A stretch of 64,000 nt of DNA. Origin: Plasmodiophora brassicae. Lineage: Eukaryota. Each line of letters begins with the position of its first letter. The stretch's first letter is position 1. The stretch is from the NCBI GenBank assembly GCA_036867785.1, contig CP145421.1, positions 124,001 through 188,000 on the forward strand. Direction: 5' to 3'. Shown here piece by piece: positions 736 through 27,142 of this stretch. The translations under genes and the position numbers were made by a program. Below the pieces are notes generated by a model. The model was not told the origin of the DNA, did not search any database, and was given only the letters and a program-made list of their open reading frames with translations.

Positions 736-3700
736 TGTCAGACTTTCGCCCAGTAGCTCCAGCTTCGATCGGGATGCCCTCGGAACATTCCGAGAGGCAA
801 CTAACCTGCGGACTGCGCGATACATAAAAATCATTCTGGTGTTGTATTGCGTCGAGGCGGACCGTCCACTTCTGTCAGATTAACAGTCGTAAGAGGCGCT
901 GCGATGTCGGACGGGACGGTCGATCCGGTGGGCAAGAAGGGCATGGGGTCGCTTGCCCGGATCAGGGACGCGGCCGAAGACTTCAAGGAAGCGTTCGTCA
1001 CCGACACACTGGAATCACTGAGGCCCGAGCACGAGCTCGCGCGAGAGGCGGTCGTCAACAGCATCAATCGCATGGCTGCCTGCAAGCAAAATTGGACACG
1101 AGCGATGAGGGCACTGAAGCTCGAGGACGATGATAACGTTGATGTCGTCGCTGCCATGATGCTGACCATGCGAATGACGGACGACTGGATGGAACTTCTA
1201 GAGGACATGTACTGCGATCGCCTAGGGGTCAGGAGGAAGCGAACGCAAGCATCGGAGCGGGCGCAGGCATTGCGATCGAACCCTGAAACAGTTACGCGAT
1301 CGGCCACGACAAAGGAACTTGGGATCTCGACCAGAGTTGCGAAGTACTCAGGGACAGATGGTATCTGTGCGACGTGGTTCGTTGACTTTGAGGGAATCAT
1401 GAACATGCTCCAAGTGAACGAGGCGATGTGGCGCGTAATATCTGAACGGATGTTTCGTGGGCAAGGCAGGGAAGGCGTACACGACGTTCAAGCAGAGCCG
1501 GCCTGATGGATGGAATTATGATGAGCTGAAGGAATACATGGTCGACATGTTTGACACCAAGGAGATGAAGGACTTATCGAGGGACTTAGACTGGATTCGT
1601 CAACAACCGAAGGAGATGGCGAGTGACTTCAGACTACGCTGGGAGGAACTGATGTCCAAGATTACCCAGAAGGGGACGGTGATGACGGAGGAATTCCAGA
1701 TTTCGATTTTGAGGAACCGAATGTTGAGACGCTACGACTTGGATGTCAAGGACTTCGAGACTAAGGGTGAGCTGTTCAAGCACTGCATTGCCAAGGACCC
1801 TAAAGGCATGCGATCGAGCAAGAGGGACGGCAAGAAAGAGGATGACGAAGACACGGTGATGTTCACCCTGAGGAACGGGAAGAAGGTCAACCTGGCCACC
1901 GTTAAATGTCACCGATGCAACCAGATGGGACACTTTCAATGGATGAGAGACAAGTGCAATAAGGCCGGCAGTGACGACGGCAAAAGTGAGGACGGAGAGA
2001 TGTTCATGACGGTCAAGGACAAGGGCAAGTTCGACGAGGACATCTGGGTGAATGACGACGCAGCCCCGTGGCATGTTTGCAATTCGCGGGAGGCATTCGT
2101 GGACATGGACGAATGCCAAGGCAAGGTACTGGGAGGCGACAAAGAGTATGAGGGCGTCGACATCGCGGGGATCGGGACCGTGCGCATCACGACGGAGAGC
2201 GGCAATCAGATCACGCTCAATGAGACGCGCTACGTGCCGAGCTTCAAGACCAATCTCATATCCGGTCAAAGAGTGATTGACATGGGATGTACAGTGAGGG
2301 GAGACAAGACAAGATTGGAGTACATGCGCAAGGGCAAAGTGGTGCTAAGCATGTCGCGATACAAAGGGTACTGGGCGCTAAGGGCAACCCCGAAACCTCA
2401 GTCGGTTCTATTCGGACAACCTGGACCGGCGGTGTCGCTGAGCACGTGGCACGAACGCTTTGGACATGCATCGTATGACAAGCTGATGAAGTTGATCAAA
2501 GAAGAATCGTGCGAGGGCCTGAACGCGTCGGACGTCAAGGCACCTGAGGGGAAGTGTGTCGATTGCTATATCGGGAAAAGCAAACGGCAAGCATTCGTGA
2601 AAGAAGGCGACGAGGCGAAGGAAATCGGAGAGATGATACACGCGGACATCAGTGGCAAGTTCTCTGTCAGGGGACGGAGTGGGAACTGGTACTTCTCTGT
2701 ACTCCGAGACAAGAAGAGTCGACATGGGTGGGTCAAGCTGATCAAGCGGAAGAGCGAAGCGGGCCAGCACTTCATGGAGTTCAAGCCCTGGTTCGAGCGC
2801 CAGACGGGGAGGAAGATCAGAAGGTACGCCAACGACAAGGGAGGCGAATTCGTGTCAAAGGAACTGCGGGAGTATTTGAGCGCTGAGGGCATCGAGATTT
2901 GGGAGACCAACACTGCCACACCGAATGAGAACGAACTTGCCGAACGATACGTGGGGATGATCAAGGACATGGCGACTACGAATCACGAACGATCAGGCCT
3001 ACCGAGAATGTTCTGGGATGATGCCGTGGAACACGCTGGAGTCATCACACCACTGCTGCCGACGAACAAAGTAGAAGACGGGAAGACACCATTCGAGATC
3101 ATCCACAACCGGAAGCCGCGAGTTTCACAACTGAGACCATTCGGATGTCAGGCGATCGTGTACCAGTCGAAAGACACGCGAAGGAGTTCGAGATCAAAAG
3201 CGAAGGGCATCGAAGGAGTGATGATCGGGAATGCGCCCAGCCGCCCAGGGTACAAAATCTACATCACAACGTCCAAGAAGGTTATCGTTTCAAGAGATGT
3301 CGTGTTCAACGAGCACGTGTTCCCTTACAAGATCATGCAGGAAGAGGCAAAGGCGAAGTTGATCATGAACGAGATGGCAATGTTCGCTGACGCCGAACCC
3401 GACGTGGGAATGCAGGACGTAATGAACGAAGTCATGTTCCAACAGACCAAGGCGAGTGAGGTACCACTACCGACATCGTACGAAGAGGCGATCGCGAATG
3501 AGAATTGGAAAAGAGCAATCGAGGACGAGCAAGAGGCCATGAGAAACCGCGACGTGTTCCGACTGATGCCATTACCGACGGGTCGAAAGGCATTGAAATG
3601 CGACTACGTCTACAAGGCGAAAGCGAATCCTGATGGGTCCGTGAGCAAGTATAAGGCGCGACTTGTTGCGAAGGGGTACGACCAGGTGAAGGGGATTGAC

Positions 3701-5165
3701 TACGTGGACACCTTTGCACCGGTGGCAAAGCTAGCAACTCTGAGGCTGCTGATTGCGTTGAAGGTGATACGGCGGTATACCGCCTGGCAAAGGGACGTCA
3801 AAACGGCATTCCTGTACGCCGACTTGAAGGAGGACGTATACATCCAACAACCAAAAGGCATGGAAGACGATGACCACCCGGACTGGGTGTGGAAGTTGAA
3901 TAAGTCGATCTACGGCCTGAAACAAGCATCGCTCGAGTTCTACAAGCATCTAGTGACCGCGTTCTTGAAGGGCGGGTTTGAACAATGCAAGAGTGATCCG
4001 TGTCTGCTGAAGAAGGTCGACGGTGACGATGTCGTGTTCGTGGCGTTTCATGTCGACGACATTCCGATCGTGGGGAGCTCAACCCGGATTATGCTCGAGG
4101 CTGACCAAGTGTTGAAAGACAACTTCACGGTCGAGGAGAGCGAGTTCGAATGGATGCTGGGGATCAACATGAAGTGGTCGCCAGACGGAGGCGTGCATCT
4201 TAGCCAAGAATCGTTCGTCGAGATGCTCCTGACCAAGTTCCACATGACCAGCGCCAAGGGTGCAAACACACCAATGCAGAAGGGCGAGACGATATCGGCA
4301 CGGGGGAGCCCAAGGACCGACGATGAGCGGATAGAGTCCAAGCGGCTACCATATCGAGAGTTAGTCGGTTCCTTGTTGTATCTCACCGGTACGAGACCCG
4401 ACATCGCGTTTGTGGTGGGACGACTGTGCCGTTTCATGGGCTGCTACGGCGCGAACCACTACGAGGCAGCCAAGCGAGTGCTACGGTATTTGAAGACGAC
4501 GAAGGACATGGCGTTGAAATACCCTGGCTGTGAACAGAGCGAACAGCTGAAGCTCATCGTGGACTCCGATCACGCAGGATGTCCCGACACCGGAAGGTCC
4601 ACCACCGGGTATATGATCAAGTTTGGTGAATGCATGATCACGTGGAAATCCGTGCTGCAGAAGACTGTGGCGCTGTCGACCACCGAGGCCGAGTACATGG
4701 CCCTATGCAGTGGGGTGCGCGAGCTATTGTGGGTGAAGCAGGTGTGTGAGTTTCTTCAGGTCAAAATTGAAGGACCGATCGCGGTGTTCACGGACAACAC
4801 TGGAGCGATGGCCATTTCGAACCACCAAGGGGATGACCTGCGTGGGAGGACCAAGCATATGAACGTGCGCTACCACTTCACGAAAGAACAAGTACATGCA
4901 GGAACCATCAAGCTGCACCATGTACCGAGCACGAGGAACGTTGCGGACATCCTCACGAAGCCACTCACGAGGGATGCATTCGAGGGGCATCGTGCGAAGA
5001 TCCCGATCGATTCTGCGGGGGAGTGTCAGACTTTCGCCCAGTAACTCCAGCTTCGATCGGGATGCCCTCGGAACATTCCGAGAGGCAACTAACCTGCGGA
5101 CTGCGCGATACATAAAAATCATTCTGGTGTTGTATTGCGTCGAGGCGGACCGTCCACTTCTGTCA
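736..5165 (+). mobile_element. Full-length Ty1/Copia LTR retrotransposon (Copia-1)
   Basis: 142-bp LTRs 736-877 and 5024-5165 (TG..CA, 1 mismatch seen), 5-bp TSD CACTC, PBS 878-891, PPT GCGGGGGAG before the 3' LTR. Domain order gag-PR-IN-RT-RH. Confidence 0.97.
904..5044 (+). CDS. Copia gag-pol polyprotein with one frameshift near 1460
   Basis: Zn knuckle CHRCNQMGH, PR-like WVNDDAAPWHVC, WHERFGH..C..C, IN IHADISG/DKGGEF/NELAER, RT KARLVAKG/DVKTAFL/HVDD, RH DSDHAG/ADILTKPL. ORFs 847-1506 and 1457-5044 join if one G is removed from CGTGGGCAAG. Confidence 0.93.
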
Positions 5166-6772
5166 CACTCATTGGCGTAATTAGTGTGGAACACACTAAT
5201 TGGATACCACTTTTTTCGATAGGTCAGACCACATTCAGTGTGTGTCACAGTAATAGGGAACTAACACTAATCACACGCTAAAATAAATAGTGTGATTAAC
5301 ACTATTCAAATTTCACCCTATTTAGTGTGTGTCAGCAGGTACGCAAAATGGCAGAAGGAGGTCACATTTTGTCGCACTATGACCTATACATGGGACTGGC
5401 TCATCATCGAAATGGTTTCGATGTTTGGAGATAATGGCTTGGAGGTTAGGGTTGAGCTGCGCCGGGAGGCAGCGCCCACCCGTGCCTGACCGTCGTCCCC
5501 GTCTACAGACAATTCGTCTTATCCTGAGCGATATTCAATTGATGTCACGCGACACCCACCAACGGCTCGCCTTCATGTAGTTCGCATTCGATGTGCCTCG
5601 GAAGTGTTCAGGGAGTTCGCGAATTGTCCTGCCGAACAGGCGGGCTTTGCCATGAGAAGCGTCGTCGCTGACCATCCACGATACACCTTCATCCGCGTCT
5701 GCTGCGCCGACACTTGCTGCAGCTTACGCTTCCGGTCGTTACTTCTTTCTGGTCCCACATCAGTTTCGACCTCTTCTTCTGATTGTCGAACTTCCGGAGC
5801 ACCATCTGGTTGCTGTCTTGAGCCGCCAGATTCCTGCTCGTCCTCTGACGATGAGTCATTATCGTCGATCCCGGCCCGCTGTTGCTGTGCACGTGCAAAC
5901 GCGGCTGCAATCGTTGATGCGGAGAAGACAGATATTGCTGGCATCGCGTGGCCCTCGTCCTGAGAAACCTGGCAATCGCGTATGTGTAGTCTGTTCGGAC
6001 TCCGGAGATGTACAGGTACGCCGCGGAGGCAAGTCTGTTACAAGTCGAGCAGAGCATTCACTGAGTGTTGCTATATATAGAAATCATGGCCGGATGGAGG
6101 TGGTATCCCATTAGTGTTAGTAACACTAATGGGAAACTAACACTATTTAGTTTTACACACTAATTACGCCAATGAGTGTAGTGCCAATTTGGTGTCGTCA
6201 AGTGCCAATAAAGGGCTGATGGGCTAATCCACGGGATGGCACTAATTTGGCACTTCTGTTTTTCCATTGAATGTCACTCTGACGTCAGACATGTTGTATA
6301 TCTGATGCAGGCAATATAGCACGAATCAGGCTCTGCAGGCTGGTTCTGACAAATCGCGGAATGGCGCAATTTACCAAGGCGTCTTGAACTTCTTCCGCAG
6401 TCGGGGAATTGCAAACAGTGACGCCGTGCAATGGCCCTTCGACGAGACGAAGCGGAGTAAGTGCATGCACTGACTGTCAACGACGTGTACCTAATGTGGT
6501 ATTAAACCTGCAGTGATTAAAAACTTTCTGGCCAACGCCAAGGCTGCCGCTGGCCTCAGTCGGAAGGAACCCGGGACGAAGAAGCGCTTCAAGAAAGCGC
6601 CAACCGGGATGATAACAGGAGACGGGCCCAAATTCCGCTTCCTGGAGCGTTTATGGGCCCGGATGAAAGAAATCCCAGACGGCCATCCAGGCCTGGAAGG
6701 AGAGGAGATGCTGGAACGCGCTATGACGACGTTTCGAAACACGGCCGGCACCTGGAATTCACAATCTGATTA

Positions 6773-7672: not shown

Positions 7673-7714
7673 TTATGATCCCTAAATTAATACAGCTAGC
7701 CCACGCACGTTTCA

Positions 7715-7830
7715 ATGCACGGATGCATGCAACGGATGCAGCTGGTGATGCAGACGGATGCAGCAGGTGATGCAGACGGATGCAGGCGGTGCTGCAGACG
7801 GATGCAGGCGGTGCTGCATCCGTCTGCAAC
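7715..7830. repeat. Short degenerate tandem repeat (GATGCAGACG/GATGCAGGCG)
   Basis: Repeated GGATGCAG/TGCAGACG units, directly visible. Confidence 0.7.
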
Positions 7831-8849: not shown

Positions 8850-9060
8850 GATCGCTGACGCCAGTCGATCACCGGATTATGGTGTTCAAGCCACGGCATC
8901 CCGAGAATGATGGGATGGTTGGGAGCGCGGATCACATTCAAAATCAAGTTGCTGTCCTGGAACTGACCGTCGACCCTCACAGCCATGGGTAGCGTCTCCT
9001 GCGACACCGGCGGTAGGGCCCTGCCATCAACCACTTTGACAGCAATCGCCTGCTGCTTCG
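8850..9060 (-). pseudogene. Gypsy-type aspartic protease C-terminal remnant
   Basis: AVKVVDGRAL...LNVIRAPNHPIILGMPWLEHHNPVIDWRQRS matches the retroviral-like RVP_2 motif ILGMPWL..HNP.IDW. Confidence 0.75.
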
Positions 9061-9211
9061 CAACGCAGGGAGTGTCGTTCTGTGACATCTCTCAATCTAG
9101 CATTGAGACGTTGTCATCGAAACGCAGTTCGAACTCTGATTTATTCCTGGCCCGCTGGTCTGCCAACCTCCAGTGTGTCTCCGGAGTCCGCAACGGTCTC
9201 CGGAGTCCGCC

Positions 9212-12200
9212 TGTGCTAACGCCGCCGCTGCCCACTACGGGGGCGGTCGGTCGCAAGAGTCGGCGCCTGGTGATATAACGAACTGATGTATTTGGACAGG
9301 ATCGTCACAGCAAGGGCCGCTGCGGGGTCGAGTACGGTCATGATCATGTGACCGGGTGGCAGCAGCATCTGAGCAGCATCATCTGAGTACTGGTACTCTG
9401 GATGAACACTCCCCGTGTTAGAAATCTGCTAACAGTCGTGAGCAGAGCGAGTCTCCTTCGGCGTGTCGTTCGAGGAAGGCCCTGACGATATCAGGAACAT
9501 CGGCCGCCATGACCGAGTAAGGTTCCCATGAATTGTCGGTGGCATCGAATCCGATCCAGTTGATCAGTAGTTCAGTGTCACCTGACGTAGAATTGACTCG
9601 AATGTCCTCGACTGCGTTGACTTGGTAAGCCACGCCGGTGAGCGCGATGTTGTGTTTCAGGGAAGAGGTGACATTCAAGTGCGCATCTGCATAGAACATT
9701 AAGCGCTGGGCGTGTACATCTGAGATACGATCAGTCAAGAGATCTCGAACTCGATACACCCAGTCGTTGATGGTGTCGATAATCTGGGCAGGTCCAGTCC
9801 AGTTGTACTCGGACTTGGAGTGCTTGCCATGGTTGGCCACGAGGACATAGTCGCCCGTCGTGAAGTTGATCTCGCGAACATTGCGTCGGCGACGCCGGGC
9901 GCGTTGCTTGAGATCACGTAGATGGGTGCGTGTACGTGCCACTGCTTTGTGCATGTCCTCGAGAGAATCGATAAGTTCCGTCGTCATTTCCTTGAGACGG
10001 TCAGGGGTCAACGGTACGTCGATAACCGCGTCGATGCGTTTGTTGAAGATAATCGAGATAGGTGTCGAGGGTGGCAAACCCGTAAACATCGTGACAGGCG
10101 CGTAGCCCACACTTGATCGAACAGTGTGATTTACCGTCATGTTGATCAGCGGAAGGACATACGGCCAATCCTGGAATGGAAGATTTAGCTCGGAGAGGAG
10201 GGACTTCAGCAGAAAGAGAAGCCGCTTGTTGACAACCTCAACCGTGCCGTTCGCCCAAGGTGTGTAGGCAGTTGTGAAATGATGGTTGCAGTGTAACCGG
10301 CTATTAAGCTCGGCGATAACCGTGTTTTTGAAGTGTGTGCCGCGGTCAGAGACATGTTGGAAAACAATGCCGAAACGTTTGAACCAATCCAGAAGAGATT
10401 CGGCGACAACGCTGTGATCCGCGAATTGACAAGGAATTAACTCGACGAATGCCGTGGCGTCGTCCTTCAGAACCAGAACATAACGAAGTTGATGAGAATC
10501 GCCTGGACGAGGTTTGGATAAGAACAGAAAGTCATAGTGGATGACCTTATTGGGCTTGTCCGCATGCATAGCCGTGCCAAAAGGTCGGGGAATCATCGAA
10601 TCTTTGTTGCGTAGGCAGTGTAAGCATTTGTCCACAAATGCACGAACAAAGGAATCCAGATCAGGCCACCAGAAGAGTTGTGCGATGCTCGAAATAGTCG
10701 ATGCAGCAGGTTGATGACCAGACAGTCCCATATGTGAAATCACTGCGATGCGTAGCTGCAGTGCATGTGATGGTACCCAGAGTTGATTGTCTGGAGTACG
10801 CCAGCCAGATTCCGGGCTAAGGTGGAGAGACATGTCCCCTTCGAGTTGGAGAATATCGGAAACGACAGATAAGTCGTGTTGGCGAATGTAGTCGGTCTGA
10901 GCGTTACTAATCTCGTCGACAGACGGCCAGATAAACTCATCGGTCATCTTGTAATCGTCGAAGTCAAGATTAATTGCCATATGACGAATAGAACGGAACG
11001 ATGGAGGGGAAAATGAGGAGAGTGGTTGCAGGGCGACGCCCCACCGCGTGGCGAGGTCGGCCCAAACGTTGTCCTCCCCAGCAATGTGCTCAATGTGAAA
11101 ATCTAGGTCGATAATCTGAAGTCGCCAGCGCTCCAAGCGATCGCCGGTCGTCCGACTAATTCGTGCAACCGAGGCTGGGTTCAGAATGAAAACCAGATTA
11201 CGGTGGTCCGTGAAGATTCGAAGTGCCAACTTTGACATAGATATGAAGTGTCTGAGGCGATAGCAGCCTTCGATGATGGCGTAGGCCTCCTTCTCAATGG
11301 TCGCCCACTTCAATTGAGAACCACGGAATGTCCCCGAGATGAACGACAAAGGTTCGTGGTGTTGCTCACCGTACGGAAGATCAATATCTTCCGGAGGGAT
11401 CTGCGACAGGAAAACAGACCAGAAACGGTCACTCGCATCCGGAAAGAGACACATGATCCATTCGTCCTTGGGGTGCGCCAGCGTCATGGCCTCCGATAGA
11501 CGATGCTTCAGAGAATTGAAACTGGTGAGATGGTCAGTGGTCCAGCCGATGTCGGCTAAACGAACTCGACGTAGGTGTGATTTCTTCAGACTGCTGACAG
11601 AACGAGAAGCGGACAGAAGTAGATCCTGTAGCGGATGAACATGTGCCGCGAATTGAGGGATAACAGAACGGACCCAATTGAGGCCCGAGAGGAACTGTTG
11701 GAGATCAGCAGCCGTGATAGGAGTTGATAGATCGTGCAAGGCGTTGAGATACGAGCGATCGAACGACACTCCATCAGCGGATATAACGCGACCGCACCAT
11801 GTCACTGAAGTGAGATATAACTGGCAGCGATCAGGGTTGAGTTTAACTCCAAACTCGTCGAAAGCGTTGAGAAGAGATTCGAGTGTGTCCATGTAGGCTC
11901 CGAATCCAGATACGTAGCCGAGGATATCGTCGATCCAGAGTAGGGCGCAGATATATAGAAGTTTCCCCAACACCTGTTGCATTCCCGCCTGGAACGCAAA
12001 CACGCAATCAGCGATTCCCTGGATGATGCGCCTGGGTGTAAACGTGGCGATGTGCGTCATGAACGAGCAGGCCTCCTGCGACAGGGTGCAACGGAAATTG
12101 CCAATAGCCTTTAAAGGCATCGAACAGCATGAAGATGGTCGCGGAACGTAGGTAGGTCAGGATGATGTCGATGTGAGGCATCGGCCATGCAATGCGTTCG

Positions 12201-14545
12201 GTCTGTTTGTTGACGGCTTCATTGATGTCGACGGTCAGCCGATGGCCGCGAACCTCCGTGTCCTTCTTGTCGACGACCAGACACGGCGACGCGTACCTGC
12301 TGTGCGGATTGCGGTACACAAAATCGTTTTCCGCCAAGGTTCCTACGTGATCATCCATGAATTTTTGATGTTCGAGGGTATACCTTCGTGTTCGGCAACG
12401 AACAGGACGAGCATCTGCTTTGAAGTGTAGTTTCAGTGGACTTACTTTCGCAGGTGGATCACGGCCAAGCTTCGTTCGCCATATGTCTTTGTGTCGATTG
12501 ACAGTTGTGCGTAGACGCGGGACTTGATCGTTAGGGAAACCGGAGTCAGTTGCACGTTGTATCATCCGGTCTATTGCCCTGTCCACGTCTGTATCGGAGT
12601 GTTCTCCGATTTCGACATCATAGTCGTCACCCGGATCATTGGTGTCCAATTGGGGCTCATGATCGCGAGTTGTTCCACTTACCTCCGGGTGTCTTACCGC
12701 TCTCATCGTGATCCCTTGACCACCTGGGGCGTGACGTTCCGGGGTCGGATCCGCTTCGATGATGATAGGACCATTTGCCTCGATTAACATCTCCTTCAGT
12801 TGTGTAGCTGGATTGATACCCAACGCGTCCAGTTCCGGGGCTCCTAAAAGGACAATGTCATCAGATAGGTCTTCGCGACATACGTTGATTTCCCGCCCGC
12901 GTAGATGTGCAGGTTTGCCATGCGAAGGTGGGACAATGGTGATGTCCACGATCGCTGTGGCGACAATTGTTGTCGTAGCCCCGATCGTCGCAAGTTTCGC
13001 CTCCGTTGGATGGTCGAACACTTTGACTGGGACATGCTGGATGGCTTGAATCCGTAGCAGTTGCGACTGCGAAATGACGGTCTTCGTCGCACCACTATCG
13101 GCTTCGAATGGAAGGTCGAGCGAGTTCTGGAAGCGAAGTCTCATAGGGGACGGTGTTGACGGCGACGGCGGGCCCATGCGCTTTGCCGCGTCTGCGTTGC
13201 CCTTATTCTCCTCCTTCTCTTTGCGCTCTTTCTGGAACTTCTCAATGGCAGCTTTGCGTTCTCCTTGTGTTGCCTTCGGGCACACTTGGACCCAGTGCTG
13301 CTCCTTGCAGATTAGGCAACCTGCCTTTGGAGGATCCTTACCTTCGAAACGTTTTCGGATGTGCTCGGGGGTGTCCCTCGATTCGTCTTTCGTTTGCGAT
13401 GTGGACGATTGAGCTGTCTTCAGTCCGATCGGATTTGTCGGATGCTTGCCGCCATTCCTATTCGGAGCAACAACGTCCTTACCTTTCTTACCTGCAGGTG
13501 GGGACATGGTCTGCGCTGGAGACTTCTTCTTCTCAGCTTGCAGCCGGAAGTGTTTGTCCTGCTCTTTGGCAAGACGGTCGACGAGGTCGAAGAATTTGAG
13601 CTCGTCCTTCTCAGCGTCCCTGCACCCTCCGAACTCGATCGCGCGTTCGACTAGAACCGCAAGGTCAGTGGGACGGATACCTCCGCGTAATACCTTGATC
13701 TTGCGCTTGGTTCCTTTCGTTCCTTTGGCGTATGTGTCTTGTAGCCCATAGTCGTCGATTAGCTCATCGAACTTGGCGAAGAAAGACGTGACACGTTCCT
13801 CAATACTCTTGATTGACAGGTTCATGACCACTGTCTTCGTGAGAAGCGCCTTGATGTCTGTCGAACTCTCGACATCAGCCTCCCTGCGTTGGACTGACCT
13901 CAAGTAGCTCATGATGTCGCCATCCGTGATCGTGCTGGCGGGTTGACGTAGGCGATATTTCGACATCCCTTTGAGGACGTCCTCGGTAATGCATGACTTC
14001 ACCGTTGGCGGATGAATATCCTCCTTGTAGATCAGTCGGCGCTCGTTAACGATCTCGACGTGTTTCCTATATTTCTTGAGGAAATCGTTAATTCCGTCCT
14101 TGGCCGTAAGGCTCAGGGTACGTAGGATGGGCGGTTTCAAAGGCATAAAGATCGGGCTCTTACCGTGCAGGTTTGTTGACTGAAGCCCTCGATCGATTTC
14201 GTCATCTGTCGACGATTCATGCTCCTTGGCCTCGGCGTCGGAGTTGGTCCTGGCGTCGTCCTCCATCTGTAGACGAACGGGCGCTCTGCGGCCACCTCCT
14301 GCCATTAAGTGAGTTCGTTTGCTTGGGGCTCTTTGCGCAAGAAGCTTCTGTGCTAACGCCGCCGCTGCCCACTACGGGGGCGGTCGGTCGCAAGAGTCGG
14401 CGCCTGGTGATATAACGAACTGATGTATTTGGACAGGATCGTCACAGCAAGGGCCGCTGCGGGGTCGAGTACGGTCATGATCATGTGACCGGGTGGCAGC
14501 AGCATCTGAGCAGCATCATCTGAGTACTGGTACTCTGGATGAACA
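9212..14545 (-). mobile_element. Full-length chromodomain-bearing Ty3/Gypsy element (Gypsy-1)
   Basis: 197-bp LTRs 9212-9408 and 14349-14545, apparently identical. TSD CCGCC, PPT CGGGGAG. Inserted into a 19-bp tandem repeat (ACGGTCTCCGGAGTCCGC). Confidence 0.97.
9418..14305 (-). CDS. Gypsy-1 gag-PR-RT-RH-IN-chromodomain, frameshifted near 12082
   Basis: CLICKEQHWVQVC, ADSGA, DAFKGYWQ, WIDD, PDAS/EKEA/TDH, HYDF/DRGTHF/NGTVE, chromodomain LLINWIGFDATDNSWEP. Confidence 0.93.
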
Positions 14546-14997
14546 CCGCCACGGTCTCCGGAGTCCGCGGTCTATTCTGGGAACACACGACTGGACCTTG
14601 TGGGACTGTTGACTGTGCCTGCCCGGAGTTTCCGGTAGTTGTGGTCTAGCGGAGTTGCATGCCGGTTCAAGGTGTGACCGTGATCATCATAGGTGCAGCT
14701 AGGCTGTGCATATGATTCACTCCCCTCGTCAAGCTAAAGTCCCCCTGTTGCGCTTTGACCCTGTTGTTGGCGCTGTAGTGGGGTCTTGCAGGGTGGCGGC
14801 TCCGGGGCGAGTCTATGGGCTCATCGAGTCCTCCAAGGTTCGCAGGTGATTGGTCTTCCTCACTTCGGTTGACCAGCCTACACTACTGACGACATCCACC
14901 CCCCTGTGGGAGGTGGTCACCTTTTTACAGGCGCCCCTTCACCTTCCACCTGCTCAAATGACCCCCTATGATCAGTCCTAAACGACACTTACTGGGC

Positions 14998-15148
14998 TGT
15001 CGGGCACCCACAGGACAAAGGTGAAAAACGCGGGCGCCGCTGGGAATCGAACCCAGGGCCAACGGTTGAACGTACCGCTGCTGTACCACTCAGCTACGGC
15101 GCCTGAAGTCCGACTGGCGTGAGGATTGGATGTATGTAATTCCTGACA
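14998..15148 (-). mobile_element. 151-bp Copia-type 3' LTR containing a tRNA-like gene
   Basis: Termini TGTCAGG...CCCGACA, preceded on the - strand by PPT TTGAGGGGGCG (same style as the other Copia/TRIM PPTs here). Confidence 0.7.
15032..15103 (-). tRNA. tRNA-like gene with intact cloverleaf but non-canonical anticodon loop (ACGTTCA)
   Basis: GGCGCCG TA GCTG AGTGGTA CAGC A GCGGT ACGTTCA ACCGT TGGCC CTGGG TTCGATT CCCAG CGGCGCC C. A box TAGCTGAGTGG, B box GGTTCGATTCC, TTTTT terminator 3 nt downstream. Confidence 0.85.
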
Positions 15149-15162
15149 CGCCCCCTCAATCC

Positions 15163-15261
15163 TGAAACGACGAAATCAGAGTGAGATATATTGATGGATA
15201 TAGAGCGAAGATATTGGGTGTGACGGGCAACGTCGTAGACGTGAGACGCGGTGCACGTTAC
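15163..15261 (-). mobile_element. LTR end fragment related to Copia-2
   Basis: First 31 bp (TGAAACGACGAAATCAGAGTGAGATATATTG) are identical to the Copia-2 5' LTR end at 24166-24196. Confidence 0.65.
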
Positions 15262-16197
15262 TAAGAACGACAATAACGAAGTGATTTATTCCACCGACAT
15301 CGGCGCGAGACGATGGCGACGTAACGCAGTGTAACAGGGCTTGCCAAAGCCGTTACCGGCAACGGCGACGGTGGCGGAGCCTCTGTTGTGGACGTGACAC
15401 AGTCGCGCACCCACACAATGTCATCGTGTGCCGGTGGTAGGACATGGTCCTCGACACGCCCCCTCCAACGGCACGCGGTTGCATGCGGAAGGCGGTCGAA
15501 CGGACGTGTCCCGGCTGGATCTTCGACTCTGGATCATGTACAACACGACCTTGCTCGTGCTTGTATGTCTTGGCTTGTTGACGCGACACGAGACTGATCG
15601 TGGCGTAGCTAGAGCTGACATGTATGGCGCGATATGCTGGGGCGGAGTCGACAGTGACGACAGAGACTGAAGGACGTGGCTCGGGACGACACCGACGCCG
15701 AAGGCGCCGGCGGACAACGTTATATCGAGAAGAGGTTGAGGCAAGCGATTGAGGCCCGTACGACCGGCGTACGCCTGGCGCTTACGTCCCGGTACTGGTT
15801 CTGGATTCCCGTAATGACGGCCTGCCTTGCTTGCACGATCTGCCTCGGCTCTCTGGCGCGTGGCGCGACTGGAGTGGGCGTTCGTGGCGCGTTGTGCAGA
15901 AGCAGGGTCAGGGCAGAGACGCAGTGACGCGGGACTGGCTCTGGATGGCACCGGCGCGCCGGGCGCCGGCGGGCTCGCCGCCTCGAAGCGCGCGAACGCT
16001 ACGACTGTTAATCTAAGAACGACAATAACGAAGTGGATGTATTACGTACGGCGTGTGCGGCGGACGTTACAGTGGCGACGTAGTCGCCGACGGTGTAACG
16101 GTTGCCAACGCCGGCGGGCACGGAGTCGCGGAGTGCGTGACGGCGTTCACGTGCTGCAGGCATGTGCTGCTGGTCGTAGTGGATACGTTGTTCGACA
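15262..16197 (-). mobile_element. Non-autonomous TRIM-like element (TRIM-B) with discordant LTRs
   Basis: 3' LTR 15262-15456, PPT, internal region homologous to TRIM-A, PBS 16000-16013. The 5' LTR 16014-16197 shares only TGTCGA and the last ~22 bp. No TSD. Confidence 0.8.
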
Positions 16198-16636
16198 GCA
16201 TCGTCACGACGACGTCAGCCTCGCCACGTCATCGGGCTAAATCGGGGCACGCAGTTTGTCTAAATATAGTCCAGGACCGTCAGGTCAGGTGGCAGCACGT
16301 TGATGTAGGGAACGAGACGCTATAAATAGAGCCCCGCTCTACACTGCCTTTCTCCAAACTCGTGACCGGAATCATCGGTGAGCACGTAGTACGTAGATGG
16401 TGAAGTTGACAGAAGGTAGTGTGAGACTCGGAATCACCCAATACTCACTAAAAACCACCTTGTAACCCCATGGGAAAAATCGGTGGAAAATCCATTTACG
16501 GACACCCTTGCCACCAAACACCATCGGTGCAACGAAGACATAAGCGATGGTGCGCTCGACCCACATAGGTGGAGCCCGGTCCATATACATCTGGAAAGTA
16601 TCATTCACCTAACTCAGCGGCCGACCCACATAGGTG

Positions 16637-17586
16637 TGTCGAGGATCATGTCGTACCACCGGCACACGGTGACACCGTGACAGTGCGCGACTGCGTAACG
16701 TCCTCGGCAGAGGCTCCGCCACTGACGCCGTTGTCGGTAACGGCTTGGCAAGCCCCTGTTACACAGCGTTACATCGCCACCGTCTCGCGCCGATGTCGGT
16801 CGGAATAAATCACTTCGTTATCGTCTTCATCAGATTAACAGTCGTAGGCGTTCTGCGCGCTTCGAGGCGGTGAGCCCACCGGCGCCCCGCGCGCCGGTGC
16901 CATCCAGTGCCAGTCCCGCGTCACTGTGTCTCTGCCCTGACCCTGCTTCTGCACAACGCGCCACGAACGCCCACTCCAGTCGCGCCACGCGCAAGAGAGT
17001 CCAGGCAGATCGCGCCAGCAAGGCAGGCCGTCATTAAGGGGATCCAGAACCAGTACCGGGACGTAAGTGCCAGGCGTACGCCGGTCGTACGGGCCTCAAT
17101 CGCTTGCCTCAATCGCTTCGCAAGATAACGTTGTCCGTCGGCGCAATCTGCGTCGACGTCGTCCTGAGCCAGATCCAACACCCTGCGCGTCATCGTCGAA
17201 CCCGCCTCAGCAAATTGCGCCATTCATGTCACCTCAAGCTACGCCACGATCCGTCTCGTGCCGCGTCAACGAGCCAAGGCATATGAGCACGTGCAAGGCG
17301 GTGTTGTTCATGATTCAGAGTCAAAGGTCCAGCCGGGACACATCCGTTCGACCGTCTTCCGCATGCAACCGCGTGCCGTTGGAGGGGGCGTGTCGAGGAT
17401 CATGTCGTACCACCGGCACACGGTGACACCGTGACAGTGCGCGACTGCGTAACGTCCTCGGCAGAGGCTCCGCCACTGACGCCGTTGTCGGTAACGGCTT
17501 GGCAAGCCCCTGTTACACAGCGTTACATCGCCACCGTCTCGCGCCGATGTCGGTCGGAATAAATCACTTCGTTATCGTCTTCATCA
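16637..17586 (+). mobile_element. Young non-autonomous TRIM-like LTR element (TRIM-A, 950 bp)
   Basis: 196-bp apparently identical LTRs 16637-16832 and 17391-17586, TSD AGGTG, PBS GATTAACAGTCGTA, PPT GGAGGGGGCG, no pol. Confidence 0.95.
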
Positions 17587-18022
17587 AGGTGGACCCCCAG
17601 CGCAACAGAGTCTCGATAGCCAGTACGCCCTGACCAGAGTCAACTGCGGTGAAGAGGAACTTAACAGACGCTGCCGACTGCCTCGTGATCGTAACGTATC
17701 AATGAGGTCACCGTCATGACCCATCGAGGAACGTATTGGCCTCTCATAGGAGTGCCATAAACCATAGTCGCATGACGTCCATGACAACCAGGTTAACTGA
17801 TCCCATGACGTCCATGAAAATCAGTGAAGCGGGTCCCAACGTTTTGAGTACCCGGTCCTCAGCTATAGAAGACCATGATCCAGATCATCTTCGTAACGTT
17901 CACCATGAACCGATACGGTGGCGTCGTCCGTGATTAGGTCCCGACGCAACGTATGAAGCGTATACGATTGTTGATTCCTACGAACCCAACAACCGTAAAT
18001 CATGGATACCTTGCACCCATAC

Positions 18023-21000
18023 CTAATGTTTTGTTCGTTGCTTCCGTTGCGCTTGTCGCTTCCCCGTATTCGTACCCTTTTGCATCGGCGCCATTTCTCG
18101 TAACGCCTCCACTTGCGGATGATCATCTCCGAGACGTCGTATAAGCTTCTGGACTAGTTCGGGAACATCTTCGTAGATGATACGAGCAGGTTCCCACGTT
18201 GCTTCCGCCTCGTCGAATCCAGACCATAGAACCTTGATCTGAAGTTCTTGCGTTTCTCGATCCACTCGACAGTCCAGTAGATCGTCCACCAACAGCTGGT
18301 TATCAGCGTGCTGGAGATGACGCTTGAGATCGACGGTCATGTTCAGGTCGGCGTCAGCGTATCGTCGAATTCGTTGTGAGTGTGCGTTGAAGTGTCGTTC
18401 AGTGAGCGGGTCTTCCAGCTCGTACACTTGATCGTTGATCATCTTGACGACTCGATATGGGCCTCGCCACTGGGCTATCAACTTCTGAGCAGGACCCGGT
18501 ACCGGTTTTGCGTTGAGCACGTAGTCGCCAACGATGAACGATTCGTAGTGGCTCTTGTTCAGGCGTCGTCGCCGTTGTGCCTTTGCTTCATCAACGGCCT
18601 TGTGAATCTCGTCGAGGACCTCTTGTAACGTCGGCACATACTTGGCGAATCCTTCAGGTGGTATGCGTCGCCATTGTCTCTCCTTCGGATCCCAGATCTG
18701 GTCGAGCGGGCTTTCTGGCGAACGCCCCGTGACGACCGTGATCGGCGCGTAACCGTTGAGACGTCGACTTGGCGTGTGGTTAATGACGTGCTGAACGACT
18801 GGACACAAGTACGGCCAGTTGTGCGTCGTAATCTGGGCCTCGTTCAGGATCGAACGCATGACGTTGAGCACAGTGCGGTTTGCGCGCTCCACCGTGCCAT
18901 TGGCCCATGGACAGTATGCAGTCGTGATGTGATGCTGAACATCTCGTAACCTGGTAAGCTCCTCCATGATTTCCGCCGTGAAGTGTGAACCACCGTCCGT
19001 GACCAGGTACTCAGGCGTCGCGAAATCAGCAATCCACTGATTCAGAGCTTCCGTAGCAACACGACTTGTCGCCTCAGCTGATGGGATCAGGCGTACGTAG
19101 CCGCTGAAGTCGTCCTTCAGGAGCAGGATGTACTTGTACTGGTGGTCCGTGCCCCTGACTGGCTCCACGTAGAGGTAATCCATGGTGAGCACGTCGAACG
19201 GCTTGTGGCCATGCAACGCTTCACCAAGTGGTCTTGGAACTTTCTTACCACCGCGTGTCGTAATGCAATGCAGGCATTGCTGGCACATCGCTTGAATGTC
19301 CTGACTGATCTTCTTCCAGACGAAGCGCTCCATGATCATCTGCTTGGTTACGTCGTACGCACGATGACCAGCGCTCGCGCAATGACCAATAATCAGGATC
19401 CGTAGTCGTAGACTCTTGCAGTCCAGATGGCATGGGATGAGAACAGCTTTGTCCTCGTTCTTCCACAAACGATCAGCTTCGTCGAAGTAGACGCCATTGT
19501 CAATCTTCTCGTCCCGTGACAGTAGTCGCTGTGCATCGCGAATCTCCATCTCCGTCGGCCAGCTAAACTCAGGATGCTGCCGAGGAGTGACTTGCAAGTC
19601 GTCAAGCTCCATGATGCGTGCTGCTCGACATGACAAGGCGATACGACCGGCGCCCCATCTTGTCAGCAGGTCAGCCCAAACGTTGTCCTCTCCGGCGATG
19701 CTCTTCGTCTGGTAGCGGAACCCCTGCAGGTGCAACGCCCAACGTTCCAGCTTCTGGGCGGTGTGCTTCTTCATTTCGGAGTCCTGACTGAAAATGAACG
19801 TCAGATTGCGATGATCGGTATAGAGTAGGAACTCTCGTGATGTCTGAAGCAGGAAGTCCCCGCGTTCCGTAGCGTAGATGATCGCGGCCGCCTCCTTCTC
19901 GGGCGTAGACCATCGTAGTTCTGAACCAGCGAAGCGTTTGCCATAGAACGCGAGAGGTTCGTGACGTTGATCGCAAACAGGCAGGTCGATATCCTCCAAC
20001 GGGATCTGCGTGATGACAGCTGCCCATGCCGTTTCACTTGCGTCGGTGAACAGGCATGTCTGGTAGTTCGACTTCGGGTAGGCCAGCTGAACGTGTTGAA
20101 TCAGGGCGAACCGTATGTCCGTAAATGACTTGTTGTGCTGGTCACTCCAACCCAACGCGTCAAGCGTGATCGATGATGGCGTTGCGGATCGAATACGCTT
20201 CAACTCGTCATTGGCCCGATCGATAATGTCTTGTAGTGGACGGATGATACATGGATAGCCGGGTATGTGAGTACGCATCCAGTTGGCCGCCCATAGGAAC
20301 TGCTGCAACTCCTTGACAGTTCGCGGACGCGACATGGTCGTAAGCGCTTCAATACGTTCTGGGTCATGTCGTACACCATCACGTGAGTAGATTCGCCCGC
20401 ACCACTTCAGTTCACGAGCGAATAACGTGCACTTGCCCGGATTCAGTTTCACATTGCGTTCACGACATCTCTCAAGAACCCGCGTCAGCTGATGTAGCAG
20501 GTCATCCTCTGACTTTGCGAATCCAAGGAGGTCGTCGATCCATATCAGCAGATTGTCCTTCATGTCGTCGAAGATCGCTGCCATCCGAGCATGAAATTGA
20601 ATTGCCGAGTTCATGCCTCCTTGAATACTCCTCGTAGGCGTATAGACAGCGTCGTCCGTCATGAAGCTGAATTTTTCTTGGCATTCCTTTGCCAACGGCA
20701 TTAGCCAGAAGCCTTTGAACGCGTCGATCGTGAAGAAGCATGTCATGCCAGCAAGCTTGCGCGTGACCGCCTCCACGTTAGGCATCGGCCAGGCGGTGGG
20801 AACACACCGCGCGTTGACCTGGCGTAGGTCGACACATAGACGGTAGCCGTCGCCCTTCGGTTTCTTTACGACTAAGACGGGACTTGCCCAGCGAGAGTTC
20901 ATGTTCATGTAGATGAGACCGTTCTCCTTGAGCATTTTGACCATATCGTCAAGGAATTCCTTCTGCTTCGGGTTGTAGAACCGCGGCTTGCACCGGTAAG

Positions 21001-21720
21001 GCGTGATATCCGGCTTCAGCTGCGTTACCATCGGTTCGACATCGACAGGCTTATCTTGCCCCAGCCGCGTACGGAATTCGTTCAGGTGTCGTCGCAATAT
21101 CAGACGTAGTCGAGCAACTCCATGTCGGGACATTCCGTTGAGGCGTGCTTGATGCACCATTCGATTGCACGACGTTTCGATCTCGTGCACGTTGATTGGT
21201 CCCAGGTCGACTTCACTTGAAGATGGCTCAGCGGAGTCTGGTTCCTGAGGGGCTTGAAAGTAGTCGCTTCCAAGCGTTGTCATTCTAGCAGCAATGCGCC
21301 GCACAGTCTCGATTGAATCGACGTCGACTGCCGCACATCCTGACAGCGTGTCCATCTCGGTACATCCTGATGCGATGATGTTCTCCAGCTGCTTATGCGG
21401 GTTGATGCCAACGCAGATAGAAGATTGTCACCGAACAGGATCACTGGAATCGTGTCGCAGACGTAGTAGGTCACATGGTACAGCTTAAGGTTGCCAACCT
21501 CGGTCTCCAGAGTCGTGACTGGAACTTGTACCATTCTCGTGATCGTCCCGATGACCTTGCCATCTGCGGAAGTGATGTCTCGTGGCTGGGCGTCGCGAAA
21601 TGTGGCATCATTCAACTGGTCAGCGATATGGCCAGGTATGATATTTCCACCACGACAGCCCGAATCCAGTTCGTAGGGAACGCGTATGCCTTCCAGCACT
21701 ACCCGTTGCATTGATTCCTC
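18023..21720 (-). CDS. Gypsy-2 PR-RT-RH-IN-chromodomain (frameshift ~21410)
   Basis: LDSGC protease, DAFKGFW, WIDD, TDAS/EKEA/TDH, TMDY/DGGSHF/NGTVER, chromodomain IKVLWSGFDEAEATWEP. Confidence 0.92.
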
Positions 21721-22086
21721 AGTCCCAGTGTACCCGTCAGTCTTCTGGACCGTTTGCGCCTTGCGACTGAGATGCCATGACGTTGTAAACAGTTGCGACG
21801 CTCCGCCGCCCGTTAACGTGTAACGTGTACGTGTGGTTGGACGTATACGTAGGGGTGGGACGTAGTGCGCACTGTAGTCCCGTGTCTGCAGACTCTTGAC
21901 GGCACGTAATGACACAGAAACAGAATGACGTTTATCGATCGCATCGTCACGACGACGTCAGCCTCGCCACGTCATCGTGCTAAATCGGGGCACGCAGTTT
22001 GTCTAAATATAGTCCAGGACCGTCAGGTCAGGTGGCAGCACGTTGATGTAGGGAACGAGACGCTATAAATAGAGCCCCGCTCTACA

Positions 22087-24196
22087 CATTGGATGACACC
22101 GGAACGGGGGATGCTGATGGTAGCGGTGGGATAACGGCGTCGGCAGCAGCGGGTGATGATGTAAGAACGGCAACGGTGGACGGGGAACTGGCGGCGAGTA
22201 CGGGCGCGGCCTGTGAAGACTCGAGACCAGAGTTCGACCGCCCGAAGCCGAAGGTGAACGACGTTTCCAGGAATTCGGCCGTCGTGCTCTCGAATGTGTC
22301 ACCTCGTTCGACGTCATAGAAGCGCCATGCCTTCATCCCTGGCGTAAAGCCGATGAATACAGCGCGAACGCGACGATGATCCAGCTTGGTCGGCTTCTTC
22401 GAAGAGGGGTAAGGGCGCATGGCGTACGTGTCGCAGCCGTAGACGCGCAGGGAAGAGACATCAGGTTTAGCGAAGCGAGCCGCCTGGAACGATGAGCGAC
22501 GCCCCGGAAGGACGGATCGAGGATGGACATTGTAGAGGACGGCAGAATACGAGAGCGACCAGGGCCAGGTGAAATCGGGCATACGCGCGTGACACCGGAT
22601 AGCGCCTTCGATACAGCACAGGCTGTAGTTGACAATTTCGGCTCGGCCGCTCTGCTCGGGCGTATACGGAACCGACTTGCGATGAAGGATGCCGGACTCA
22701 TTGTAGAATGTAACGCATGCCTTGGAATTAAACTCGCCTCCGCCATCTGTTTGGAAGTCGGAAATGCCACGTCCCTCCTGGTTACGTAGACGTGCATCGT
22801 AGTGCTTGATGACATCGAGGGCGTCCGATTTTCGACGGAGCAGGTAGACGGCCAGGTAGCGCGTTGAATCATCCAGCATGGTCTGGTAATACTCGACGCC
22901 AATACCGACGACAGGCCACCGCCCGGAGAGGTCACTATGGACGAGATCGCCAACGCGACGTGCTCGCGACGTACTGGGAGGGAATGATGAGCGCTTGCCT
23001 TTGGTGAGAAGACAGGCCTCGCATGGACATCGATCCTGAAGCTTGGGAATGGGCTGATCGAAGGCCATTCCCCGACAGCGGCGCTGCAGGAGACGCAGAT
23101 AGACGTAGCCGAGATGTCCAACGCTGTAGACCGGACCGCCCAACTAGGCCACGGGAGCAGCTGCTCTCGTGGCCTAGTTGGGCGGTCCGGTCTACAACGC
23201 GCGCGTGCCAAAGGGCGGTCGATGCGGAGGCGACTGTGGCGGCGCGGCAGGACACGCTGGGCGCAGCCGATGAATAAATTTCAGTTGACGATGGGGCAGC
23301 GGGAGCACGGAGGGCGATCCTGTAGAGATTATCGGCTCCTCGCGTGCTGACCGCTAGCGGGGTCCCGACAGGGGACGTCCAGTTGTCCTTGGAATAGATG
23401 GTCGCGTTGGGCCCATCGAAGACGATCTTGTGTCCGGATCGGGTGATCTGTCCAACGGAGACGAGCGCTTGGCCGAGTCGTGGGACGTGCAGCGTGTCGT
23501 TCGGGACTGTTGTACGGAAACGTTGGGCAGCGGCTTGCAGACGAGCCGCGTACAAGGCGACCGATTCACCGGCTTGCTGTCGAACACTGAACAAATCTTT
23601 AGAAGCACGAATGACAGACGAAAACGTGCAGGGTCGCAGCATGCGGAAGAGAGCGCGCCAGCATTGCGCCGATGTACCGGCGTACAGCAAGTTGTAGCCG
23701 ATCAGAACGGTCTTGTCGACCATCTGAAACAAGAGTATCTCCCGAGCAGGTGCCTCCAGATCCGCGTCCACATTGTCGGGGATACTCGGAGTCGGCGATC
23801 CGTCCAGGTCGATGCCGACAATTCCCGCGAATCCACGGTTGGTAAACCAAGACGCGGCGGCGGGCGCCCAAGCGGCAAACATTTCGTGCTTGCCGTCGAA
23901 CCGAGGCGGAGGCACGCGATCTGTACCTGGACGCACTACGCCGTCCACAATGGTTGGGCGAGGCTGCGTCGCCGGCGTCGTGGCGATGCAGGAGTACGAT
24001 GCGGTTTGCTGTCGCAGGAATGCGATGCGCGCGATCTTCTCCTGTCGCTCGGCCTCAGCGAGCTGCGCGTCGAGATCTTGGACATCTGACTCCGCCGTTC
24101 GGCCGCGATCGGCCATGACGTTGGACGCGAGCGAAACGCCCAGAGCGCGGTTACGACTGTTAATCTGAAACGACGAAATCAGAGTGAGATATATTG
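22087..24196 (-). mobile_element. Truncated Copia (Copia-2): LTR end, PBS, gag, partial PR, integrase; RT/RH missing
   Basis: PBS 24152-24165, gag PRFDGK..FAAW, LHVPRLGQALVSV, WHAR|VGHL, VHSDLSG/TDGGGEF/EQSGRAE. Confidence 0.9.
23125..23196. mobile_element. 72-bp palindromic insertion with TGTAGA..TCTACA ends
   Basis: 36+36 inverted repeat with one mismatch, 4-bp TSD ACGC. Removing it restores WHARVGHL. Confidence 0.9.
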
Positions 24197-26859: not shown

Positions 26860-27142
26860 GGGTCGCAGACGAACGGACAGGCGGATGAGCAGGCAGACGG
26901 ACGGGCAGACGGACGGACAGACGAACGGACAGGCGGATGAGCAGGCAGACGGGCGGGCAGACGGACGGACAGACGAACGATGAGCAGGCAGACGGGCGGG
27001 CAGACGGACGGACAGACGGACGAACGGGCAGACGGACGGACAGACGGACGAACGGGCAGACGGACGGACAGACGGACGAACGGGCAGACGGACGGATTAG
27101 CAGACGGACGGAGAGACGGGCGGGCGGGCAGACGGACGAACA
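26860..27142. repeat. (GACG/GGCA/GACA)n tetranucleotide-based microsatellite inside TRIM-C
   Basis: Visible GGAC/AGAC/GGGC iterations. Confidence 0.9.

Follow-up and report, generated by a model that had tools for sequence, protein, structure and literature searches.

A putative tRNA-Asn anticodon-arm primer binding site in Copia and TRIM retrotransposons of Plasmodiophora brassicae

Introduction

The choice of primer is a lineage-defining trait of LTR retrotransposons. Priming by half a tRNA is, to our knowledge, its least understood variant, and we know of no one who has identified the nuclease that cuts the tRNA. In a 64-kb window of the P. brassicae genome, the whole stretch of DNA that was analyzed here, four LTR elements carry the same 14-mer, GATTAACAGTCGTA, at the place where a primer would be expected to anneal. 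The question raised by this locus is which RNA, if any, pairs with it. Repeats make up ~12% of the genome of this clubroot pathogen, according to the accessible text of bioRxiv 10.1101/2024.04.03.587992. In the literature on Plasmodiophora retrotransposons, LTRs, Copia, and Gypsy, nothing was found on the primer binding sites (PBSs) of retroelements.

Results

A search of both strands of the window that allowed up to 2 mismatches returned four matches to GATTAACAGTCGTA, all of them exact: 878-891 (+) in Copia-1, 16833-16846 (+) in TRIM-A, 16000-16013 (-) in TRIM-B, and 24152-24165 (-) in Copia-2. The number expected by chance was 0.16 (mean of 100 shuffles of the window), and none of the shuffles reached four matches. 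The end of a 5' LTR adjoins each copy, the boundary being inferred for TRIM-B and Copia-2. For Copia-1 and TRIM-A, the LTR bounds were set independently by the repeats and by 5-bp target duplications, and the 14-mer begins immediately downstream of the LTR, with no base in between. The first-pass annotation, which had placed this motif directly after the 5' LTR of four elements, was thus borne out, and judged from its position, the 14-mer lies where a primer binding site lies. Comparison of the flanks showed that sequence identity among the four copies ends exactly at both edges of the 14-mer. The base preceding it is A in all four, and GCGCT occurs 3 to 10 nt downstream of it in every copy, which agrees with an earlier remark on motifs of this type just downstream of the site.

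Copia-1 is an intact element. Its 5' LTR (736..877, +; 142 nt, TG..CA) forms a direct repeat of 99.3% identity with the 3' LTR (5024..5165, +), and the element is flanked by the 5-bp target duplication CACTC (731-735 and 5166-5170). Between the LTRs, the predicted PBS is followed by gag-pol (904..5044, +), with gag extending to 1506 and pol occupying 1457-5044 in the +1 frame, and the polypurine tract GCGGGGGAG (5015..5023, +) stands directly before the 3' LTR. Pfam matches to RVT_2 (7e-58), SH3_retrovirus, Pol_BBD, gag_pre-integrs, and Retrotrans_gag are arranged in Copia order; by its predicted domains, Copia-1 is of the Ty1/copia type, with integrase upstream of reverse transcriptase (RT). 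Its gag-pol product is 100% identical to P. brassicae protein P0001, and named relatives of its pol include Puccinia coronata protein P0008 (36% identity over 37% of the query).

The second protein-coding carrier, Copia-2, is truncated. Its predicted PBS follows ..CGTCGTTTCA, the end of a 5' LTR at 24166..24340 (-) the start of which is not defined since the 3' LTR is not in the window; the probable LTR boundary was drawn from the terminal ..TTTCA together with a 31-nt copy of this terminus found at 15163-15193. The internal remnant (22088..24151, -) comprises gag, a weak protease-barrel match, and integrase and is truncated at 22087 by the chromovirus Gypsy-B. Matches to rve (7.8e-08) and SH3_retrovirus (1.5e-16), accompanied by a weak one to Pol_BBD (E 0.15), directly follow the gag and protease-barrel remnant, the RT having been lost to truncation. 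Copia-2, too, is classed on these predictions as the Ty1/copia type, and its integrase region shares 26% amino acid identity with that of Copia-1 over 296 amino acids. Gypsy-B itself (16185..22087, -; LTR pair of 160 nt, 96.9%; RVT_1, RNase H, rve, and chromo domains) separates Copia-2 from TRIM-B, and TRIM-A sits inside it. The 14-mer search of the window found no Asn-type PBS in Gypsy-B.

TRIM-A is a 950-bp element with a 5' LTR of 196 nt (16637..16832, +) that is repeated at its 3' end (17391..17586, +), the polypurine tract GGAGGGGGCG (17381..17390, +) directly before the 3' LTR, and the 5-bp target duplication AGGTG (16632-16636 and 17587-17591) on its flanks. No recognizable coding capacity was found in it: the only ATG-initiated open reading frames of at least 50 amino acids encode 100 and 66 amino acids, both without a Pfam match. 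It therefore has the features by which TRIMs are defined, namely, a length below 1 kb, two LTRs, a PBS, a polypurine tract, a target duplication, and noncoding content. The two LTRs show no differences, as the single mismatch of the 200-nt repeat falls in the 4 nt before the LTRs. From this identity and from the 99.3% identity of the Copia-1 LTRs, TRIM-A and Copia-1 are judged to have been recently active.

TRIM-B (15265..16013, -) consists of a 3' LTR (15265-15460), an internal region, and the predicted PBS; it aligns in inverted orientation with TRIM-A for 787 nt at 88.3% identity and carries the polypurine tract sequence of TRIM-A before its 3' LTR. The 5' LTR-like stretch (16014..16184, -) is cut by the Gypsy-B insertion and closely matches the TRIM-A LTR in its last 33 nt only, and the LTR/PBS boundary of TRIM-B was inferred from its likeness to TRIM-A. 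Over their final ~30 nt, the TRIM LTRs are similar to the end of the Copia-2 LTR, so part of the sharing reflects common descent. The carriers of the 14-mer are consequently three lineages, the intact Copia-1, the truncated Copia-2, and two related TRIMs. The earlier description of four elements with mostly unrelated LTRs holds for Copia-1 and Copia-2, the LTRs of which do not align, but not for TRIM-A and TRIM-B, which form one family, and four independent carriers cannot be counted.

The complement of the 14-mer is the canonical anticodon arm of tRNA-Asn(GUU), positions 27 to 40. A pattern made of this complement and the T-loop matched at least 119 loci in a metagenome scan. Of the 119 listed, 78 were called as tRNAs by ARAGORN, and another three were truncated at the end of a contig. 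All 78 were Asn(gtt) with the complement at positions 27 to 40, which upholds the first reading of the complement as a tRNA-Asn(GUU) anticodon arm ending at position 40 for the tRNAs of the metagenome. Of the stem pairs, the two that the 14-mer allows to be tested (30-40 and 31-39) are Watson-Crick, and U33 and A37 are present as well. Position 41 is G in the 78 called arms; with A as the base that precedes the 14-mer, pairing would stop at position 40. When the site was compared with 315 tRNAs from the metagenome loci, complementarity reached its maximum, all 14 nt, in 79 tRNAs; the three listed as examples were Asn(gtt). A conventional PBS directed at a tRNA 3' end was rejected, as the site lacks TGG and its complement does not end in CCA. 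The first-pass annotation had named a better match to such an end, or to the element's own 5' end, as grounds for abandoning its reading; neither was found, the complement in the elements' own LTRs being shorter than 8 nt.

For the host tRNA-Asn, contigs of 4 runs holding the P. brassicae genome were aligned to a metagenome tRNA-Asn (L087:75-148) at 80% likeness. Two tRNA-sized, high-depth pieces (73 to 75 nt) aligned with 6 and 7 differences, which are known as counts and not as letters. Judged from the loose ends of the alignments, the D and T stems would account for most of these differences. At most 3 differences are then left for position 26, the anticodon arm, and the variable loop, a figure that assumes perfect stems. 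As a control, 1 of 234 non-Asn tRNAs (Arg-tct) also came within 3 differences of the tRNA-Asn core. Neither piece can thus be assigned with certainty to an Asn gene, or to the parasite as opposed to a contaminant. They are compatible with a host tRNA-Asn that has this arm. Two shorter aligned pieces, one of 42 nt with 6 differences that was absent from run X15 and one of 45 nt with 4 indels, are probably tRNAs of other organisms, although this is a guess.

Discussion

We consider it probable that the 14-mer is the minus-strand PBS of two deeply diverged Ty1/copia lineages of P. brassicae and of a TRIM family riding on them, and that the primer is a tRNA-Asn fragment ending at C40. The site would pair with nucleotides 27 to 40 of cytoplasmic tRNA-Asn(GUU), a stretch that begins with the 5' side of the anticodon stem, takes in the whole CUGUUAA loop, and reaches two bases into the 3' side of the stem. 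The arm of the host tRNA-Asn, which we infer to be present in P. brassicae, would contain TACGACTGTTAATC. Because a free 3'-OH is needed, the primer must end at C40, and cleavage of the tRNA would fall within the 3' side of its anticodon stem, presumably between positions 40 and 41. RT would extend this fragment into U5-R to yield strong-stop DNA. Plus-strand strong-stop synthesis would later start from the G-rich polypurine tract and copy the primer back to position 26, where it may stop; eukaryotic tRNAs habitually carry a blocking modification at G26. The PBS would in this way be rewritten from the primer in each cycle, which would explain the identity of exactly these 14 letters in otherwise dissimilar lineages.

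A different RNA with the same 14 letters, such as an organellar tRNA-Asn, an internal tRNA fragment in place of the complete 5' half, or the transcript of a tRNA-derived repeat, would leave the site a PBS but replace the 5' half of cytoplasmic tRNA-Asn as primer, and we regard such a primer as unlikely. AT richness and short D loops do give some of these 78 tRNA-Asn genes an organellar or viral look, and DNA sequence does not reveal where the primer begins. The same transposon cluster also contains a tRNA-like gene of the Pol III type whose "anticodon" is GTT (15032..15103, -), called Asn(gtt) by ARAGORN and scoring 57.6 bits with the Rfam tRNA model. However, its anticodon loop is aberrant, and its anticodon arm differs from the PBS complement, with C at positions 33 and 37; as it does not contain the 14-mer complement, it was rejected as the primer source. 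It is the only tRNA-like gene in the window by ARAGORN and Rfam, and it lies outside TRIM-A and TRIM-B. Against an organellar primer, it counts that reverse transcription of LTR elements occurs in cytoplasmic particles and that the known half-tRNA primers are cytoplasmic.

We think it very improbable that the 14-mer is a conserved cis element, maintained by common descent or by a role in packaging or dimerization, with a merely coincidental match to tRNA-Asn. Such an element would be in keeping with the membership of TRIM-A and TRIM-B in one family, with the likeness of the TRIM and Copia-2 LTR ends over ~30 nt, and with the GCGCT motif, by which some neighboring sequence is also common to the four copies. 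The two Copia elements, however, are as distant as their integrases and nonaligning LTRs indicate, yet these 14 nt are identical and sharply bounded, and the site occupies precisely the position required of a PBS. A match of 14 of 14 letters to tRNA positions 27 to 40 by chance, with the right stem pairs and loop, is itself very unlikely, and every called tRNA with the complement was Asn. Even more remote is self-priming as in Tf1, in which the 5' end of the transcript folds back on the site and is then cut. This mode is known in LTR elements and is predicted for 12% of plant elements in a plant survey (PMC6317226), and a recognizable tRNA-type PBS is missing from the window's two Gypsy elements, with only chance matches of 7 to 8 nt to the 315 tRNAs of the metagenome loci. 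In the four elements studied here, it was rejected: the longest exact complement of the PBS in the elements' own 5' LTRs was 0, 6, 6, and 7 nt, and beyond the four exact copies, neither strand of the window held a further match to the motif when up to 2 mismatches were allowed.

A more specific version of tRNA-Asn fragment priming is also conceivable, but we hold it to be doubtful. P. brassicae might make a defined 40-nt 5' tRNA-Asn fragment, cut between positions 40 and 41, that was adopted by several Copia lineages of ancient divergence together with the TRIMs that parasitize them. The site would then have two parts, the 14-mer and, 3 to 10 nt downstream of it, a GCGCU box in contact with the D stem on its 3' strand. 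If this were true, half-tRNA priming with a footprint at positions 27 to 40 would be an ancestral Copia trait beyond plants, fungi, and animals, and a conserved host nuclease would be indicated as the supplier of the primer.

What P. brassicae contributes is a predicted tRNA-Asn footprint of 14 nt that is identical in two very distant Copia lineages and in a TRIM with recent activity. Half-tRNA priming in a rhizarian would mean that the mechanism reaches beyond opisthokonts and plants and that the primer could change (iMet, Ile, Arg, Tyr, or Asn) without a shift of its footprint. The general picture is unchanged, with one more case added to a known class. In addition, the 14-mer is a simple tag by which copies of Copia and TRIM elements could be located and classified in assemblies of the clubroot pathogen.

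Drosophila copia and yeast Ty5 belong to the Ty1/copia superfamily, like the coding carriers described here, and are primed by a fragment of initiator tRNA-Met, whereas the predicted primer here is tRNA-Asn(GUU) and the host is a rhizarian parasite. The copia site is said to cover tRNA positions 27 to 40 as well, which would make the P. brassicae site positionally equivalent to those of copia and Ty5. The primer was reportedly mapped by experiment for copia and supported by mutation for Ty5, whereas the primer in P. brassicae is predicted from sequence.

Half-tRNA primers derived from tRNA-Ile, -Arg, -Tyr, and -Asn-GTT have already been published, as far as the accessible parts of the sources go (PMC6317226, PMC4139406, and PMC10886601). 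The supposition in the first-pass annotation that a tRNA-Asn half primer had not been described did not survive this comparison, since the available text on rust fungi names tRNA-Asn-GTT among the anticodon-loop primers of Copia and TRIM families (Kojima 2024, PMC10886601). The P. brassicae case is apparently the first noted in Rhizaria. In rust fungi (Pucciniales), autonomous Copia elements and the short nonautonomous Helenus TRIMs share an anticodon-loop PBS, and tRNA-Asn-GTT as one primer type occurs together with 5-bp target duplications, in both respects resembling the elements described here (PMC10886601). That text gives tRNA-Asp in two places and tRNA-Asn-GTT in one, seemingly for the same group, and its sites were compared with ours by description only. 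Helenus LTRs hold a tRNA-like sequence in the same account (PMC10886601), whereas ARAGORN and Rfam found none of this tRNA-like Pol III promoter sequence, the Helenus hallmark, in the LTRs of TRIM-A and TRIM-B.

Plant Bianca (1/2 tRNA-Ile) and Osser, Bryco, and Gymco-II (1/2 tRNA-Met) are Ty1/copia elements that use a half-tRNA cut in the anticodon stem, as is predicted for those described here, and primer type is a lineage trait in plant Ty1/copia, as stated in the available sections of PMC6317226. In these sections, the half primers listed are restricted to Met and Ile, and tRNA-Asn, which primes 2% of elements, does so solely through its 3' end, which differs from the site reported here. 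An internal region of a noninitiator tRNA is described as a PBS partner common to several LTR families of one genome in the accessible text of a review (PMC4139406), with another tRNA and another host than in P. brassicae. Both protein-coding carriers of the 14-mer fall in the superfamily, Ty1/copia, for which half-tRNA priming is known, and we count this as support for reading the 14-mer as the binding site of a tRNA half.

Occurrence and carriers of the motif

The 14-nt motif GATTAACAGTCGTA, a putative primer binding site (PBS), is present in four exact copies in the window, starting at 878 (+), 16833 (+), 16000 (-), and 24152 (-), versus a mean of 0.16 in shuffled sequences, none of which reached four. 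The first-pass annotation had placed it directly after the 5' LTR of four elements, and this placement was confirmed. In Copia-1 and TRIM-A, whose LTR ends were set independently by direct repeat and target duplication, the motif begins at the first base past the 5' LTR. The preceding base is A in all four copies. Sequence identity among the carrier lineages is confined to the 14-mer at both edges, and the carriers represent three independent lineages, not four. The motif is absent from both Gypsy elements of the window.

Copia-1 (736-5165, +) is flanked by 142-nt LTRs that are 99.3% identical and by a 5-bp target duplication, CACTC, with the polypurine tract GCGGGGGAG preceding the 3' LTR. 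It encodes the full Ty1/copia domain set (RVT_2, SH3_retrovirus, Pol_BBD, and gag_pre-integrs), and its polyprotein is 100% identical to a Plasmodiophora brassicae protein (NCBI, UniRef). Within its coding region (847-5044, +), gag ends at 1506 and pol, in a different frame (+1), starts at 1457, with a 50-nt overlap. A public 1,362-aa protein model spans both, presumably through an intron introduced in the model; alternatively, the two frames could be joined by programmed frameshifting, as in Ty1.

TRIM-A (16637-17586, +; 950 bp), without recognisable coding capacity, is a young insertion. Its 196-nt LTRs do not differ at all, the sole mismatch of the 200-nt repeat falling in the 4 nt that precede them, and it carries the target duplication AGGTG and the polypurine tract GGAGGGGGCG. 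TRIM-B (15265 to ~16184, -), of the same short LTR-element family, is 88% identical to TRIM-A across 787 nt; in its 5' LTR-like stretch, the close match is limited to the last 33 nt. Copia-2 is a remnant in which the motif is followed by a gag-like ORF (weak protease-barrel match) and an ORF with rve and a Copia-type SH3 domain, sharing 26% identity with Copia-1 in the integrase region. Copia-2 ends at 22087, where a Gypsy chromovirus (16185-22087) cuts it off; TRIM-A sits inside that chromovirus.

Several neighbouring repeats were also recorded. A stretch at 15148-15193 (-) holds 31 nt that repeat the Copia-2 LTR end. Next come G/GATT, which would be no more than the initial letters of a PBS, the polypurine tract-like GAGGGGGCG, and TGTCAGG.., which resembles an LTR start; a tRNA-like gene starts 47 nt beyond. 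An element that has lost internal sequence, or an LTR that includes a tRNA-like segment in the manner of Helenus, may account for this stretch. Two tandem copies of the 16-nt motif ACGGTCTCCGGAGTCC (9193-9211 and 14546-14566) flank Gypsy-A, a chromodomain element whose insertion produced a 5-bp duplication, CCGCC. Tandem arrays with periods of ~12 and ~147-155 nt, together with a 93-197-nt segment present in inverted copies (26800-28100 and 30720-30990), are unrelated to the PBS finding.

Match of the motif to tRNA-Asn

The complement of the motif, TACGACTGTTAATC, comprises five stem bases, a 7-base loop (U33, anticodon GUU, and A37), and two bases that pair with positions 31 and 30. Metagenome contigs were scanned for this complement followed by GTTCRA at T-loop distance, which yielded at least 119 loci. 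Among the matches listed, ARAGORN called a tRNA in 78 of 119 loci, and each of these was a tRNA-Asn(gtt) that carries the motif at positions 27-40; on these matches, the earlier assignment of the complement to a tRNA-Asn(GUU) anticodon arm ending at position 40 stands. Three further loci were cut by a contig end, two look like chance, and in ~36 unrelated DNA is followed by no more than the 3' portion of tRNA-Asn. In loci of this last kind (L013, L014, L018, L021, and about 30 more), tRNA-Asn is present from the anticodon arm onward, which is the pattern left behind by integrative elements whose attachment sites are tRNA-Asn genes. The full 14-nt complement was found in 79 of the 315 tRNAs of the loci listed. 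Position 41 is G in the 78 arms among the matches listed and is unable to pair with the last A of the LTR, so that pairing would end at C40.

The sole tRNA-like gene of the window (15032-15103, -) was called Asn(gtt) by ARAGORN and scored 57.6 bits with Rfam. It has an intact cloverleaf, a T-run 3 nt downstream, and sequences resembling A and B boxes; the anticodon loop reads A-C-G-U-U-C-A, with C at 33 and 37. As a primer it was rejected, since its arm lacks the PBS complement. It is unlikely to be a functional tRNA-Asn and is probably a pseudogene or the head of a tRNA-derived repeat, rather than a tRNA that decodes.

Contigs of four sequencing runs containing the P. brassicae genome were aligned to a tRNA-Asn with the right arm. 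Two tRNA-sized pieces aligned with 6 and 7 differences (counts only, without letters), at a depth that was high and similar in all four runs. The D and T stems take three differences in each piece, from loose ends, leaving at most three for position 26, the arm, and the variable loop if perfect stems are assumed. As a control, 1 of 234 non-Asn tRNAs was equally close to the tRNA-Asn core. The alignment is compatible with a host tRNA-Asn holding this arm, and nothing stronger.

Candidate priming mechanism

Two other origins of the primer had been named as better matches to look for, and neither matched the motif better. A site for a tRNA 3' end was rejected because the motif has no TGG and is thus unable to pair with a CCA end. 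Self-priming is unlikely, since pieces of the complement in the element's own LTR do not exceed 7 nt. At the two Gypsy elements (9212-14545, -, and 16185-22087, -), the sequence after the 5' LTR matched no 3' end and no anticodon arm of a small tRNA set, in which the longest tRNA complement was 7-8 nt.

The best reading of the sequence, and in our judgment a likely one, is that a fragment of tRNA-Asn acts as the primer, much as a tRNA fragment does in copia and Ty5. The 3' end of the primer would lie at C40, and each cycle would rewrite the PBS from the primer, which we propose as the cause of the sharp edges of the 14-mer. Plus-strand synthesis stopping at position 26 would give the 14-nt length of the site; G26 of tRNA frequently carries a blocking modification.

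The GCGCT-type motif noted just downstream in the first-pass annotation lies 3-10 nt past the PBS in all four copies. When 20-mers were drawn at random from the window in threes, a 5-mer of any kind was common to the three in 1,515 of 200,000 trials. Since GCGC forms the 5' strand of the D stem in one of the two tRNA-sized host pieces, a second contact of GCGCT with the tRNA D stem is possible.

Relation to known half-tRNA primers

The motif observation is real, and its mechanistic reading as tRNA-Asn fragment priming appears sound. A literature search found no report on Plasmodiophora primer sites. Half-tRNA priming is a Copia trait: copia and Ty5 are described with a half-tRNA primer from iMet, plant Copia lineages with Met and Ile tRNA halves (PMC6317226), and Candida with internal regions of tRNA-Arg(UCU) and iMet as primer partners (PMC4139406). 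The first-pass annotation had considered an Asn half primer undescribed, which cannot be upheld, since tRNA-Asn-GTT is named for rust fungi by Kojima 2024 (PMC10886601). There, Copia families and TRIMs have common anticodon-loop sites, and tRNA-Asn-GTT was adopted once, with tRNA-Asp named elsewhere in the text.
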